Of a stretch of DNA of 64,000 nucleotides, positions 41,435-49,113 are shown in pieces. The stretch lies in assembly GCA_963709345.1 (NCBI GenBank), contig CAVPVX010000002.1, positions 128,001 through 192,000 on the forward strand. Reading direction: 5' to 3'. The DNA is from an uncultured Actinomycetes bacterium (GTDB lineage: Bacteria; Actinomycetota; Thermoleophilia; UBA2241). The translations under genes were made by a program, and so were the position numbers. The first letter of the stretch is position 1. The number at the start of each line of letters is the position of its first letter. The notes under the pieces were generated by a model, which was not told the DNA's origin, did not search any database, and worked only from the letters and a program-made list of their open reading frames with translations.

Positions 41435-44400
41435 TCAGAGACCCTGGACACCGCCCAGGAAGTCGTAGCTCATCTTCCGGCGCAGATCGCTGACGGTCGA
41501 GAAGAGACGCTTCATCTGCGCCTCCTCCTCAGGAGTCCAGTCCTGCGGCAGAAGCAGGTTGCTCGGCGCGCGGCCCTCCTGCAGCGCGACGGCTTGCCGG
41601 CGCAGGCGCACGCGCATGACCGACTCATAGTCCGGCACCAGTTCTTCGAACGACTCGCGCGACAGCACCCCTCGCTCATGCAACTCGGTGAGACGATCCA
41701 GCGTGTTCGTCGGGTCGATGTGATGCTTCAGGGCATACAGTCGCGCGAAGTTCACCACCGGGAGCAAAGCCTCCTTCGTGCTCACTGCCTTCGGGGTATC
41801 GCCGGACGAACCCGTCTGGATACCTCCCAGAAGCCCGACCGGCGGCTTGTACAGCAATGCGTTCTGGGCGAAGTGGATGAAGAACAGCGGGTAGGCCTGC
41901 ATCTCGTCGAAGACCCAGGTGCGCAGATTGCGCGCGAGAGCCGGCTCGCCGCCGACGCAGCGGAAGTCGAACAGCATGTTCAGCTCCAGAAGCGCCTGTG
42001 GATCGGCATTGTGGATCCAGTCGGTGAACTGATCGCGCCACGTGGACATGGGCAGGTTCCAGCGGGGGTTCTTGGCCATGACGCCGCCTTCGCAGAAGAC
42101 GTAGCCCACCCGGTCGAGCCAATCACACACCAGGGTCCCGAGAGCAAGGAAGTACTCCTCGGCCGCCTTCGCCGCCTCGGGCGACGGGTCCTCGTACAGG
42201 ATGGCGTTGTCCTGGTCGGTCACGAGCGTCTGTTCCTCGCGACCCTCACTGCCGAGAGCAAGGAAGGCGAAGGGGACGGGCGCAGGGCCGAGTTGGTCCA
42301 TCGCCATGGCGAGCAGCCTCTGGACGGTCGCGTCGGAGACGCTGGAGACGATGCGGTTGACATAGCGGACCTGAGCGCCCGAGTCGACGACCGCCCGAAC
42401 GGAACCGGGCAGCCGCTCGTGGGCTTCCACGATGTCGTCGACCGAGCCGGCCCGGCGGATGGAGTTCGTGACGACCACCACCGACGACTGCTCGTACCCG
42501 ACCAGATCGAGCAGCTGGACGATGCCCATGAGCTCGCCGTCCTCGTCCGTGACCGCGAGGTGGTCGACCTGCCCCTCCTGCATGCGCAGGAGAGCCTCGT
42601 AGACAGGCGCCTGAGCGGAAACGGACGCCACCGGCGCGGTCATGATCGAGCGGACCGGAGCCGCAGGATCAAGGCCCGCGGCCACGACCCGATCGCGGAA
42701 GTCGTGATCCGTCACGATCCCCATGAGCGCGCCGTCGGAGTCGGTCACGAAGACCGCGCCCACTCGCTTCTTGGTCATGAGCGCGGCCGCACGCGAGACC
42801 GGCTGGCTCCTGTCCAGCGTCAGGGCCGGAGCAACGGCATCCTTGATCGGCTCCTGCAGGTAGAAGAGCGACGTCCGCAGTTGCGCGATCACGGCCTCTC
42901 GCTCCTTCTCGCCGCGTCGCCGTGCCGTGACGTCTTCCAGGATGCCGTCACAGAAGGGCGTGCTGCCGCCCGGATCCTCCACGAGCACGGCGAAGAGTGA
43001 AACGTCCGCCCGCCCCCCGTCTTCGCGACCGCAGACCCAGATGGTAGCCTTCGACCACCTTGTCCTCGTTCAGCCGGGCGACGAGCTCGCTGCGCTCGTC
43101 GGCATCGATGATGCGCTCCAGCCAGTCGGCGCCGAGCAGGTCGACGGGGGGCGCCGACCGAAGGATGCGCCGCATCGCCGGATTCGCCTCGACCAGCGTG
43201 GCCTTGCGACCCCAGGTGCTGCGGAACACGCCCAGGCTGATGGTGTCGGACATGACCCTGAAGCGGCGACGGGTCTCGTCGAGCGCCGCCTCCATCGCCT
43301 TCTGACCGCTGAGGCTGCGGGCGATGAGGATGAAGCCGTCCTCGCCCGCAAGCGAGATGGGAGTCGCCGCCAGGAGGACGTCGACCGGGTTGCCGTCCTT
43401 GCCCCGTAGGCGAGCCTCGAACGGCGGTGGTGGCGAGCTCTTCTTCGCCCAGGCTCTCGAGGACGGCCAGCACCTGGCGGTCGTCGTCGCCCTCGCGGAT
43501 GAAGAGGCTCGACGATCTCGCACTCGGCAAGATCCTCGTGCGTGTAGCCCAGCATGTCGAGCAGCGGCTGGTTCGAGTAGGCGCAGCGCCCCTCGAGCGC
43601 CATCAGGATGCCCTCGGTGGCCGCCTCTACCAGCGTGAGGTACTTCTCGTGGGATTCTCTGAGCTCCCGTTCGGCCAGGGCCCGCGCGCTTCGTCGATCT
43701 TGAGGCTCTGCCGGGTACCGAAGAGGAGCAGAAGCGCGATGACGACCACGACGATCGTGGACGTCTGGATGAGCCTGCGCTCGACCATCGCGATGCCCTC
43801 CTTGACGTCCTCGACGTAGATGCCGGTGCCGACCACCCACTCCCAGGGACGAAAAGCCTCCACGTAGGAGAGCTTGGGGACGATCCGGGCGGGATCGTCC
43901 TTCCACTGCCAGTAGTAGTCGACGAAGCCGCCCTCCTGAGCCCGCACCGCATCGACGAACGCGACGAAGATGCTCTTGCCGCGCAGGTCCTCGTAGTCGG
44001 ACAGGTCCTGGCCGTTCAGCTCCGGCAGGTACGGGTGCATGATCATCGTGGGATGCATGTCCGTGATCCAGAAGTAGTCCTTCCCGTCGTCCCCGTACCT
44101 GAGGATTCTCGATCCGGGCGGCGGCCTCTTCTCTGGGCCTCTTCCCGGGTCATGCTGCCCGGCCAGCTTCCTCGGCGTGGTACTCGTCGAGGATGCTGAC
44201 CGCGACTCGCGTCAGCTCTTGGGCGGTCTTCTTCTTGCCCTCGAGCAGTTGGTCCTCGACGAAGGGATGAGGATCACGAAAGTGACGATGACGAAAAGGA
44301 CGACGGCGAGAACCGCCGGCAGGACGATCCGGAGGAGAAAGCCGGTCCAGCCGCGCGGATCGGATCCGGGCAGCGTGGTCAGTCTCCTGCGAGCCTTCGT

Positions 44401-45228
44401 GAAGCAAGCCGCCTCCCGAAGACGGGAGTTCGGCAGGGGCAGGCCCTGGTCCTCCGTCAGTCCGATCGCCGCCAGGAACCGGTCCCATTGCTCCAGCGGC
44501 ATGTCGACGCCGGGACTTGTTCCGTCAGAATGATGCAGACCGTGGAAATCACTCCCGCCGACCGTCAGCAGGCCGCGGCGTTCGGGCGACCGCCAGCAGA
44601 TCCTGCTGCGTGCTGCGGAAGTACAACTTGTAGAAGGCCTCGATGCCGTCCAATCCTTGTGGCTGCAGCCAGTCCAGGTACTCCTCGAGCCGCTCGATCG
44701 TCGTCAGCCCCGCGAGCGGATGGGCGAGGAGGACTCGTCCTCCGGCCTCGTGGATGAGGCAGATGGCCTCCGCGTGTCCGGCTGCTGCGGCGGGAGCGGT
44801 CACTCGGAGTCGACCGAGGCGCGAGGCCGAAGGCGCCCCGTCAGCGACGTGCCCGCCCGAGCGAGAAGACGCGCCTGCGACCGGCAGACGGGCGCCCCAG
44901 GGTCGCGCAGGACGTCTGCAGGCGCCAGCAAGGCCTCGTTCTCGGGGTCGAACCCGTAGCCCAGCAGGTGAAGCGGATCCCCTCGGCGACCGGGCGTGGA
45001 TCTCTACGCCCGGGACGACAGCGCATCCCTCGCTCTCTCGACCGCCGACCGGAAATCGCTCCAGTCCGCGCACAGGAGTTGTGGTCGGTCAGCGCCGCCC
45101 AGGCGACCCCGGCGCCGGCCAATGGTGGGCCACGTGCTCGGGCGAGATGGTCGCCGTCGCTCACCGAAGAGTGGCAGTGCAGGTCAACTCGAATGATGTC
45201 GCGGCAGTCTCTCGTGGACGTCCTTCAA
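41435..45228 (-). CDS. frameshifted multidomain sensor: PHP-TM-Cache-TM-PAS-PAS-CBS-CBS-DUF294 nucleotidyltransferase
   Basis: [70 protein letters not shown]; two [30 protein letters not shown]; pieces in ORFs 44841-45164, 44549-45073, 44212-44502, 43627-44058, 43070-43906, 42889-43530, 42948-43952, 41435-42988. Confidence 0.8.
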
Positions 45229-45432
45229 CGGGACACCTCGTTCCTGGCAGACGCGTGCACGCAAGGCCCCCAGACATACTACATGAGATGCCAGGCCACG
45301 GTGGACGGGTGGACAACTCGCCGCCGAGCGACACGTATCCTGTCCGGCCGGTCCGGGACTCCCGGCACAGCGGCCGGCGGCCGGTCACCACGCACGGTCG
45401 CACTGAGCACAGAAAGAGAGGAGTCGCAGGAC

Positions 45433-46050
45433 ATGGCCAACGGGGTAGCTTCGACCGAGACGGTCACCAAATTACTCGACACCAACGCTAATCCTGCTCC
45501 GTTGGGGCTGATGGGATTCGGCCTCACCACCATCTTGCTCAACATCCACAACGCGGGCTTCTACGACCTCAACGCCATGATCCTGGCGATGGGCATCTTC
45601 TACGGCGGTGTGGCCCAGATCATCGCCGGCATCATGGAGTGGCGGAAGAACAATACGTTCGGGACCTCGGCCTTCACTTCGTACGGGCTCTTCTGGCTGA
45701 CGCTGGCGGGCATCTGGCTGCTGCCGTCGATCTTTCCCGACACGCCGCTGCGCCGCCGGCTCCGAGCGAGACCGCTCATGGCCTGGTTCTTCGTGTTCTG
45801 GGGCCTTTTCACCGGCTACATGTTCGTCGGTACCCTCAAGCTGAATCGCGCCCTGCAGGTAGTCTTCGTCCTCCTCGACCATCCTCTTCTTCCTTCTCGC
45901 CATCCGCGATTTCGGAGGGGCGGCGATCTGGGGCACGATCGCCGGCTAGGAAGGCATCATCACCGGGCTTGCCGCCGTCTACGCGGCCTGCGCCCAGATC
46001 CTCAACGAGGTCTACAAGCGGGTGCTTCTGCCGCTCGGCCCGATCAGCCA
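45433..46050 (+). CDS. satP: acetate uptake channel SatP (GPR1/FUN34/YaaH), frameshifted
   Basis: [56 protein letters not shown]; frameshift near 45877 and TAG at 45947. Confidence 0.88.
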
Positions 46051-46500
46051 TCTATCGAAGGCGTTTCGTGCAGGATTACGGGGAAGAGATCGCCACCCTG
46101 TGGATCGCCGATCTGCGCCGCAATCCGCAGACGCCCTCGTACGGAGTGGTATCCGACGCGGAACTGATCGACGCAGGTGAGTTCGCCCTCACCCAGGTGG
46201 ACGAGTACTTCACCGGCAAGCGCAGCGGAGGCCGACATCGGCGAGTTCTTCCACGAGCTGGGAGCGACGAGGGCCGCAGACGGGCCTACCCCTTCCGGAA
46301 CTGATCAGCGCCATCCTGCTTCTGAAGCGCGAAGATCTGGATCTCGGCGCGCAGTCACGGGGTGTGGGAATCGGCCATGGACCTGCAGAAGGCGGTGGAT
46401 CTCAACCGCGAGCTGGGCCGGTTCTTCGACCGGGCGGTCTACTACGCCACCGCTCGGCTACACCGGCATGCCCGATCAGCCGACCAAGGACGTCTTCTAG
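46051..46500 (+). CDS. RsbR-N/globin-like helical domain, probably the C-terminus of SatP, frameshifted
   Basis: [29 protein letters not shown]...[10 protein letters not shown]...[14 protein letters not shown]...[12 protein letters not shown]. Confidence 0.6.
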
Positions 46501-48681: not shown

Positions 48682-48965
48682 CGTCAGACCTTCTCTTCAC
48701 GCTCGAACGACTTCTCGTGCTTGGTGCAGGCCAGTTGTAGACGATCGCCAGGAGAAGGGCGAGACGATCAGGCGAAGCCGTAGACGATCGCGAGTTGAGA
48801 CCTGCGACCACGATCGTGCCCATGGCCCTGGGCCAGGCGACGTTGACGATGATGAAGATGAGGTAGACGGACGCCGTAGACGGCGAGCATCCACAGCCCA
48901 AGGCGCTTCTTGTAGGCCGCCGCCTCGTCTACGCCGTGGACTGCTGGTGCGGGCTCATGGAGCAT
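48674..48965 (-). CDS. DUF485 (YjcH-like) small membrane protein, frameshifted
   Basis: MLHEPAP...AAAYKKRLGLWM...GLNLAIVYGF; standard partner upstream of actP. Confidence 0.75.
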
Positions 48966-49010
48966 GCCTCTCCCCCATTTCACGTCGAGGTTGATCAATC
49001 CCTACTTCCG

Positions 49011-49069
49011 TGCGTGGTCGAGGGAGACCGTTGCCCCCAGCAGAAGAGTGACTCCCCTCGACCCACGCA
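49011..49069 (-). promoter_or_regulatory. long imperfect hairpin in DUF485-actP leader
   Basis: TGCGTGGTCGAGGGAGAC pairs with GACTCCCCTCGACCCACGCA; extended -10 TGGTACGGT at 49090-49082. Confidence 0.45.
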
Positions 49070-49113
49070 GGGATGCGAGGAACCGTACCATGAAGGCGGC
49101 TTGAGGACGAGGG

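Follow-up and report, generated by a model that had tools for sequence, protein, structure and literature searches.

The window analysed here is a 64,000-nucleotide stretch of DNA from an uncultured Actinomycetes bacterium (Thermoleophilia, UBA2241; contig CAVPVX010000002.1, positions 128,001 to 192,000), and its section from 41435 to 49113 carries a five-gene cassette that joins acetate-type transporters to a transmembrane sensor. In the direction of the sensor gene, the cassette begins with a DUF485 gene, followed by a long ActP/MctC-type symporter of the SSF family. A SatP channel gene with a C-terminal sensor-globin-like domain then runs the opposite way, and a PHP-domain phosphoesterase and the sCache_2-PAS-CBS-DUF294 sensor close the set. 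The initial annotation had described this locus as a complete acetate uptake and sensing module made of a DUF485-actP pair, a satP fusion and a Cache/DUF294 sensor. These genes do lie where they were placed, and they keep the same order at 22 of 22 orthologous loci, but none of them is intact in the window apart from the last 544 amino acids of the sensor. The description as complete did not stand, as it missed the phosphoesterase gene and every gene of this copy is broken.

Domain assignments come from a Pfam scan of the 116 stop-to-stop translations of 41300–49200 (E ≤ 0.01). The G+C content of the window is 66–74%, and many long spurious frames are therefore present. One open frame on the minus strand (41438–43069) contains the CBS, DUF294 and DUF294_C matches together. 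The sCache_2 match falls in 43630–44211 of the same strand, with weak PAS matches between sCache_2 and CBS in two other frames. A Gpr1_Fun34_YaaH match was found on the plus strand within 44758–46164, and the SSF match is split over three minus-strand frames between 46528 and 48673. DUF485 gave no Pfam match on the window's own pieces and was seen by alignment only; the other-family ortholog scores 43.4 bits against PF04341, and the gene lies directly upstream of the symporter in the window and at the orthologous loci. No response-regulator, kinase or helix-turn-helix family was matched in the 116 translations or in the intact orthologous cassettes, which bears out the earlier observation that the locus has no transcription factor, response regulator or kinase of its own.

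The cassette is conserved as a unit. Intact frames occur at the orthologous loci of a same-genus genome (L009, genome G004) and of a genome from another family (L010, genome G027). A sensor ortholog of full length was found in 32 of the 401 genomes sampled from the class; 29 of the 61 genomes of one family carry it, as do 2 of the 79 in the window's own family, plus the present genome. We fetched 20 of 23 further full-length places, which together with L009 and L010 give 22 loci of related Thermoleophilia-type actinobacteria. At all 22 the five genes recur in an unchanged order, a clustering far beyond chance. The flanks are constant in the sensor-rich family, with HisG-ZnuA-ABC on one side and DUF4388-SPOUT-TrkA on the other. 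LexA and a 391-amino-acid gene on one side and a PMT-type gene on the other flank the cassette in the window and in its same-genus relative, and a third genome has neither set. There are at least three different flanking contexts, and the cassette has therefore moved as a unit.

A wider profile scan, with one genome per species, gave 80 DUF294 loci from Actinomycetota, Desulfobacterota, Bacteroidota, Spirochaetota, Chloroflexota, Armatimonadota, Planctomycetota, Cyanobacteria and other phyla; these loci are mutually related, and the counts are descriptive and overstate independence. A Cache-type N-terminus is found at 34 loci, and DUF485-ActP stands beside 18 of these (16 by the first query and two more by the second). 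An SSF transporter lies within 10 kb at 41 loci (21 of ActP type, seven of DUF4212 type and 13 others). SatP accompanies the sensor at only three loci, all actinobacterial, with one more match 5 kb away in a Bacteroidales locus. The core of the cassette, consisting of DUF485-ActP, a phosphoesterase and a Cache-DUF294 sensor, recurs in many phyla, and SatP is a lineage-specific addition. The three components named in the initial annotation stay together throughout the clade, and the sensor-ActP pair extends across phyla, but SatP does not follow.

The reading frames of the window copy were compared with those of the relatives by MAFFT alignment of positions 39001–52000 against L009, and by frame-aware protein-to-DNA alignment with two guides, the same-genus and the other-family orthologs. 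Plain tblastn of ortholog proteins ran through wrong frames and gave misleadingly low identities, and the frame-aware alignment was used instead. The MAFFT alignment contains 59 single extra letters, 14 single missing letters and 17 other insertions or deletions (indels) over the 6114 nucleotides of the affected patch (Table 1), against no indel in 39060–43027 (3968 nucleotides) and one in 50250–51790. The coding frame jumps every 100–500 nucleotides across 43000–48700, both in a frame plot of third-position G+C content and in a codon-usage Viterbi path. The sensor is clean over 41438–43027 and broken over 43028–44404, and its C-terminal 544 amino acids form the only intact reading frame of the cassette copy. 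Extra letters equal a neighbouring letter in 14 of 59 cases; in this region, ordinary letters do so in 41.5%. The extra letters are therefore not homopolymer slips. The break positions agree between the two guides, which come from different families. Programmed frameshifting and an alternative genetic code were rejected as explanations, since these 6 kb contain about 70 breaks, both insertions and deletions.

Table 1. Features of the cassette in the window, with the single-letter corrections needed to restore each frame and the amino-acid identity after correction
Feature	Position	Strand	Basis	Corrections	Identity to ortholog
Sensor: transmembrane segment - sCache_2 (outside) - transmembrane segment - PAS x2-3 - CBS pair - DUF294 - DUF294_C	41435–44404 (start approximate)	-	Pfam, frame-aware alignment	11 extra, 3 missing	85.6%, same genus (44676/44404 to 41438)
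PHP-domain phosphoesterase (TrpH/YciV-like), directly upstream of sensor	44382–45358	-	PHP domain in orthologs; alignment	10 extra, 5 missing	65%, same genus
SatP/AceTr acetate channel fused to sensor-globin-like domain	45427–46500	+	PF01184 on window piece; ortholog NF038013	10 extra, 0 missing, plus one in-frame TAG (45947–45949)	79%, same genus
SatP, channel part	45427–46040 (approximate)	+			
SatP, cytoplasmic C-terminal domain (~150 amino acids)	46041–46497 (approximate)	+			
Long ActP/MctC-type SSF symporter (ortholog ~665 amino acids)	46659–48681	-	SSF pieces; frame-aware alignment	26 extra, 4 missing	82.7% (alignment 48681–46662)
ActP insert (~170 amino acids)	about 47550–48070	-	split NCBIfam match (symporter entries L009:3556–5637 and L010:15341–17410)		
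DUF485 (YjcH-like) small membrane protein, upstream of ActP	48677–48980	-	alignment to orthologs	2 extra, 4 missing	75–76%
Patch of dense single-letter differences	43028–49141	.	MAFFT against same-genus ortholog L009		
Two flanking control genes				0	88–90%, same genus

We attribute the breaks to patchy insertion errors in the assembly and take the organism's real genes to be very probably intact, because the same signature recurs in other patches of this genome. Uncorrected long reads give a one-sided, random pattern of single-letter insertions. When the genome was divided into six-kilobase segments, 657 of 1042 had no frameshift-like switch and 23 had at least seven, and the present locus has nine. 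In another patch (C7:472001–480000; the labels are those of our contigs), 13 of 14 indels relative to the same-genus relative are extra letters, and they fall at the same places against three relatives. At the cassette itself, contigs of relatives from four public runs of two studies omit one letter at 46891, 47309, 47747, 48160/48162 and 48198. Differences from the same-genus ortholog are still concentrated at third codon positions in the broken region, and the frame-corrected sensor, PHP and ActP genes contain no stop codon. The competing account holds that the cassette is a true pseudogene array, laterally acquired into a family that rarely has it and now decaying by frameshifts. It would suit the sequence as given, where an open frame remains only over the end of the sensor, and a sensor found in only 2 of 79 genomes of the window's own family, but in 29 of 61 of another, would likewise suit a copy about to be lost. 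In addition, the TAG in SatP persists after frame correction with either guide; it may reflect a base substitution error within this low-quality patch, or else a true nonsense mutation. The four public runs show shares of only 5–6% and do not contain the organism itself; their contigs come from relatives. Decay of bacterial genes, however, is biased toward deletions of varied size, whereas extra letters outnumber missing ones here by 59 to 14 and nearly all indels are of a single letter. Corrected identities of 79–86% against 88–90% in the flanks, mostly third-position differences, three stop-free corrected genes and the same one-sided pattern in an unrelated patch, one of about a dozen such patches in the genome, also argue against decay, which we consider very unlikely.

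The other segments with 7–14 switches are C7:471001–480000, C7:456001–465000, C7:30001–39000, C7:3001–12000, C7:693001–702000, C11:201001–210000, C11:216001–234000, C4:354001–363000, C4:225001–231000, C4:1–6000 and C10:30001–39000, and genes inside them will resemble pseudogenes. A different kind of disruption lies just outside the cassette. Positions 49239–50156 of the minus strand correspond, in four frame pieces, to a 471-amino-acid open frame of the same-genus relative and lack 263, 79 and 150 nucleotides of its sequence, which differs in kind from the single-letter patch. The gene may be variable or decaying, or the relative's frame, which matched no Pfam or NCBIfam family, may be spurious.

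Intact orthologs of the sensor are open frames of 1011–1082 amino acids, in which two transmembrane segments enclose the sCache_2 domain and are followed by two PAS domains, two CBS domains, DUF294 and DUF294_C. The Cache domain matches the chemoreceptor domains of PscD (PDB 5g4y; E = 2.3e-36) and Adeh_3718 (PDB 4k08; E = 3.3e-35). PscD is reported to bind acetate, glycolate, propionate and pyruvate, and its propionate contacts are given as Tyr90, Trp92, His103, Phe126, Tyr143, Trp145 and Lys156; acetate is described in the 4k08 structure. All seven contact residues are kept both in the other-family ortholog and in the window translation of 43627–44058 of the minus strand. The likeness to the sCache_2 domains of PscD (5g4y/5g4z), Adeh_3718 and McpP ends at the output, which is chemoreceptor signalling in those proteins and a nucleotidyltransferase here, and the ligand of the present domain is a prediction from sequence. 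No cNMP_binding domain was matched in the sensor by Pfam, in the window pieces or in the orthologs, and sCache_2 and PAS domains stand in its place. The Cache match to sensors of C2/C3 carboxylates and the linkage of sensor and ActP across many phyla agree with the original view of the locus as a module for carboxylate uptake and sensing.

The output half of the sensor lies in the intact frame of the window copy and scores well above the family cut-offs, with 158.6 bits for DUF294 (PF03445; cut-off 21), 117.3 for DUF294_C (PF10335; 22.5) and 79.1 for CBS (24). Residues G273, D285 and D368 are invariant in alignments of both 119 and 42 sequences. S274 is invariant in the smaller alignment and nearly so in the larger, and D287 is nearly invariant in both, so that the G-S...DxD catalytic motif of the Pol-beta type is kept. 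An AF2 (AlphaFold2) model of the CBS-DUF294-DUF294_C module of the window has a mean confidence (predicted local distance difference test, pLDDT) of 91.8. A search of PDB sequences with the DUF294 module returned CBS matches only, and Foldseek placed DrrA first among the non-CBS folds (6yx5_B; E = 1.3e-8, template modelling score 0.67 on the target), followed by GlnE (1v4a, E = 2.2e-8; 3k7d, E = 7e-8). The module shares with GlnE, GlnD and Legionella DrrA the combination of a transferase and a helical domain, matches both halves of GlnE, and keeps the G-S...DxD motif; DUF294_C is reported to be classed with the C-terminal domain of GlnD/GlnE. Sequence identity to GlnE and DrrA is 12–13%, and neither PII nor glutamine synthetase forms part of the context here. 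Unlike these enzymes, the DUF294 sensor is predicted to be membrane-anchored and ligand-gated. Its remover would be a separate or N-terminally fused phosphoesterase, instead of an HD domain or a second transferase domain. The DUF294 module is widespread, with 1849 cluster representatives at E ≤ 1e-30.

Related genomes also hold paralogous cNMP-CBS-DUF294 genes, which carry a cNMP_binding domain and do not lie beside ActP, SatP or PHP genes. These paralogs are found beside APC permeases at six of 12 loci (L017, L019, L020, L021, L022 and L024) and beside a DUF4212-SSF pair at one (L023), and DUF294 may thus be tied to secondary transporters beyond the SSF family. At L017:12978–15131 (minus strand), one open frame combines Response_reg and GerE (a LuxR-type helix-turn-helix) with CBS, DUF294 and DUF294_C. 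A DUF294 protein preceded by a DNA-binding receiver would explain this frame, and so would two genes that no stop codon separates in it.

The PHP gene lies directly upstream of the sensor gene in the window and at all 22 orthologous loci. The orthologs match PHP (PF02811) with 44.3 and 40.1 bits (cut-off 26.4), and in 29 sequences the metal ligands H56, E81, H92, H173, D230 and H232 are invariant and H24, H26 and D31 nearly so. The best NCBIfam models, both below cut-off, are the 3',5'-nucleoside bisphosphate phosphatase (117.5 bits; cut-off 400) and RNase RNM (96 bits; cut-off 375). Structurally, the PHP enzyme comes closest to a 5'-3' exoribonuclease (7ug9) and a nucleotide phosphoesterase. 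In the wider survey, a phosphoesterase adjoins the DUF294 gene at 54 of the 80 loci, and it belongs to the PHP type at 13, the RNase_T/DnaQ-like type at 30, the calcineurin-like type (Metallophos) at nine and the HD type at two. Fusions also occur. Of 39 scanned cluster representatives, which were chosen mostly among long ones, 21 carry an N-terminal PHP domain fused to the Cache-DUF294 protein (e.g. P0007, P0011 and P0013) and one carries RNase_T (P0125, 1193 amino acids); a Sumerlaeota locus has a PHP-sensor fusion as well. The presence of four unrelated phosphoesterase folds at the same place, two of them fused to the sensor, argues for a pair of writer and eraser. Four other long representatives (P0020, P0043, P0045 and P0099) have N-terminal extensions of 100–250 amino acids with no match at 1e-6.

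The symporter of the same-genus ortholog scores 233.7 bits against SSF (cut-off 22.8), which makes it a member of the SSF superfamily. It falls below the equivalog or subfamily cut-offs of MctC (NF058657; 429.1 bits, cut-off 670), ActP (PRK09395; 409.1, cut-off 750) and TIGR02711 (338.6, cut-off 1099). The NCBIfam match is split into residues 27–226 and 398–669 by a hydrophilic insert of about 170 amino acids after the sixth transmembrane segment. The positive-inside rule would place this insert outside the cell, and contact with the Cache domain is conceivable there. The insert matched no known family or fold; an atlas search gave one unnamed cluster at 0.76, which is uninformative. The same position is extended in other phyla, as 13 of the 15 ActP genes beside DUF294 sensors from which it could be extracted have 155–228 residues there, and two have 21. 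The cassette shares the DUF485 and SSF pair with E. coli yjcH-actP, an AceTr-passing SatP with E. coli satP (yaaH), and a transporter type with the C. glutamicum monocarboxylate transporter MctC, with MctC and then ActP as the best models. It differs from these types in the sub-threshold equivalog scores, the insert and the sensor domain of about 150 amino acids on SatP. Both transporters here moreover share a single cassette with a signalling pair, and acs is absent from it.

The SatP piece of the window aligns to PF01184 with 102.7 bits over profile positions 17–153 of 207, after which the frame breaks. Its orthologs pass the AceTr_1 model (NF038013; 253.1 and 263.6 bits, cut-off 50) and match PDB 5ys3 (E = 1.2e-58). 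No part of the cassette is more conserved than the C-terminal extension, which has a mean column identity of 84% over 21 sequences and an invariant histidine at alignment position 104. Its AF2 model (pLDDT 84.2) finds its best Foldseek matches in globin-coupled sensors, pXO2-61/pXO1-118 and the RsbR N-domain, with template modelling scores of 0.58–0.71 and E-values of only 3.6e-3 to 2e-2. RsbRD_N (PF14361) scores 20.7 bits on the extension, below its cut-off of 24.3, and is the precomputed label on 101 of the 102 homologs listed. Each of these listed homologs has at least 64% identity; PF01184 and PF14361 occur together in 99 of them, and the source names point to Thermoleophilia. The fold may be that of globin-coupled sensors (AfGcHK, BpeGReg and DosC), RsbR-N and pXO1-118/pXO2-61, but the domain is fused to a channel and not to a kinase, cyclase or STAS domain.

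A link between DUF294 proteins, nucleases and actP is already known in Pseudomonas; it is in print for the cytoplasmic type and is not understood. In P. aeruginosa, PA3232-PA3235, in which PA3234 is an ActP homologue, is reported to be up about 16-fold on propionate and co-induced on acetate or propionate. In P. fluorescens, Pflu5625 (cAMP-binding, CBS and nucleotidyltransferase) is placed in the CrbS/R acetate regulon by authors who predict nucleotidylation and state that it needs characterisation. A COG2905 gene of Shewanella and P. stutzeri is reported to be cofit with a DUF4212-SSF lactate/D-alanine transporter, and a DUF294-dnaQ operon has been noted in Bacilli. The COG2905 proteins of PA3232-PA3235 and Pflu5625 (cNMP-binding domain, CBS pair, DUF294 and DUF294_C) have the same CBS-DUF294-DUF294_C output as the present sensor, and their neighbourhood is the same, with a phosphoesterase (an RNase_T/DnaQ-like exonuclease) and yjcH-actP. 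They differ at the input, which is an extracytoplasmic sCache_2 domain with PAS domains here and a cytoplasmic cNMP-binding domain there, and in the partner, which is a PHP enzyme here and an RNase_T exonuclease there. The present cassette further has the ActP insert and the added SatP-globin gene, and no CrbS/R-type regulator was seen in the scanned region of the window. A literature search on DUF294, COG2905 and family members, with supplements outside its reach, found no reported substrate, product or Cache-type variant.

We therefore read the locus as a conserved cassette with artefactual breaks, whose sensor would carry out carboxylate-gated nucleotidyl transfer, and we give this overall explanation a probability of about 0.6. 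In the mechanism that we propose, the outer Cache domain would bind acetate or another C2/C3 monocarboxylate, and the signal would pass through the PAS domains and be integrated with adenine-nucleotide status at the CBS pair. The GlnE/DrrA-like nucleotidyltransferase would be switched in turn and would attach a nucleotide to a target, most likely ActP or DUF485. The PHP enzyme, in many cases part of the sensor protein itself, would remove the mark; elsewhere this role would fall to phosphoesterases of the RNase_T, calcineurin or HD type. SatP would provide this lineage with a second route, gated by the cytoplasmic sensor domain that it carries. Post-translational control of uptake is plausible because the nearest non-CBS folds of the modelled DUF294 module are the protein AMPylases DrrA and GlnE. 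The mechanism as a whole, with nucleotidyl transfer reversed by the phosphoesterase and a protein of the uptake machinery as the most likely target, remains tentative, at somewhat less than even odds. A broader generalisation goes further and is, taken in full, on the unlikely side. It would make the locus one case of a widespread form of transmembrane signalling, in which an sCache_2 receptor drives a nucleotidyltransferase and not a kinase to mark ActP or DUF485 and a phosphoesterase recruited from four folds erases the mark, extended in this lineage by a globin-gated SatP and by a symporter insert that perhaps contacts the receptor.

Several observations weigh against this interpretation. 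Placing the target of the transferase in ActP or DUF485 is a guess, and the symporter scores below the ActP cut-offs, so that its substrate could be another monocarboxylate. By the queries used, 39 of the 80 loci have no SSF gene and 26 no phosphoesterase, although contig ends truncate some of these loci. In P. fluorescens, loss of the family member Pflu5625 is reported to have a negligible effect on growth on acetate, and the guess of Price et al. was that symporter expression, and not protein activity, depends on the family. That guess fits an alternative in which the DUF294 enzyme adds nucleotides to RNA ends, with the partner nuclease trimming them and symporter expression being controlled, or makes a nucleotide signal that the partner degrades. 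The partners themselves are of the right kind, as RNase_T/DnaQ-type exonucleases, TrpH-type PHP enzymes and calcineurin-type and HD phosphoesterases all come from folds that also act on nucleic acids or free nucleotides, and these fit an RNA or messenger role equally well. The nearest PHP structures and the top NCBIfam names given above point the same way. The folds nearest to the DUF294 module, however, are protein AMPylases and not CCA-adding enzymes, poly(A) polymerases or cyclic-nucleotide synthases, and DUF294_C is grouped with GlnD/GlnE. Nor did the Pfam scans of the window and orthologs find an RNA-binding domain or small-messenger effector in the cassette. We regard the RNA or messenger account as rather unlikely. 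The initial annotation had proposed instead that the sensor toggles the cell between active import through ActP and passive flux through SatP. Both transporter genes stand with the sensor at every locus of the clade, and the cassette has no transcription factor, as such a toggle would have it. SatP, however, is lineage-specific, and the active-versus-passive switch is therefore not supported; what accompanies the sensor in general is ActP/DUF485 and a phosphoesterase, and the highly conserved sensor-globin-like domain of SatP suggests separate gating. A toggle accordingly seems quite improbable to us, and carboxylate-gated nucleotidyl transfer is preferred.

The cassette is bordered in the window by clean single-frame genes, namely LexA (39393–40031), the 391-amino-acid gene (40240–41412) and the PMT-type glycosyltransferase (49886–51784). 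The ornithine-fermentation context noted in the initial annotation is present as well, and positions 52355–63998 include an alanine-racemase-fold gene (52355–53452), an ATP-grasp gene (53734–54927), OTCase (55534–56532), the D-ornithine aminomutase subunits OraS/OraE (60303–62998) and a pyridoxal phosphate enzyme (62886–63998).

For users of this and similar genomes, the locus carries a warning that local patches of insertion errors make real genes look like pseudogenes. The present copy is a poor template, but the system itself is real and conserved. DUF294/COG2905 proteins are common, and regulon data, fitness data and gene order tie them to transporters of acetate and other carboxylates. 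The Cache-type variant gives this family a predictable ligand, the C2/C3 carboxylates, and the compact operon brings a writer, an eraser and a likely target together, which makes the question of the output directly testable. If the sensor does nucleotidylate a transporter protein, both this type of transmembrane receptor and this way of controlling transport would be new.

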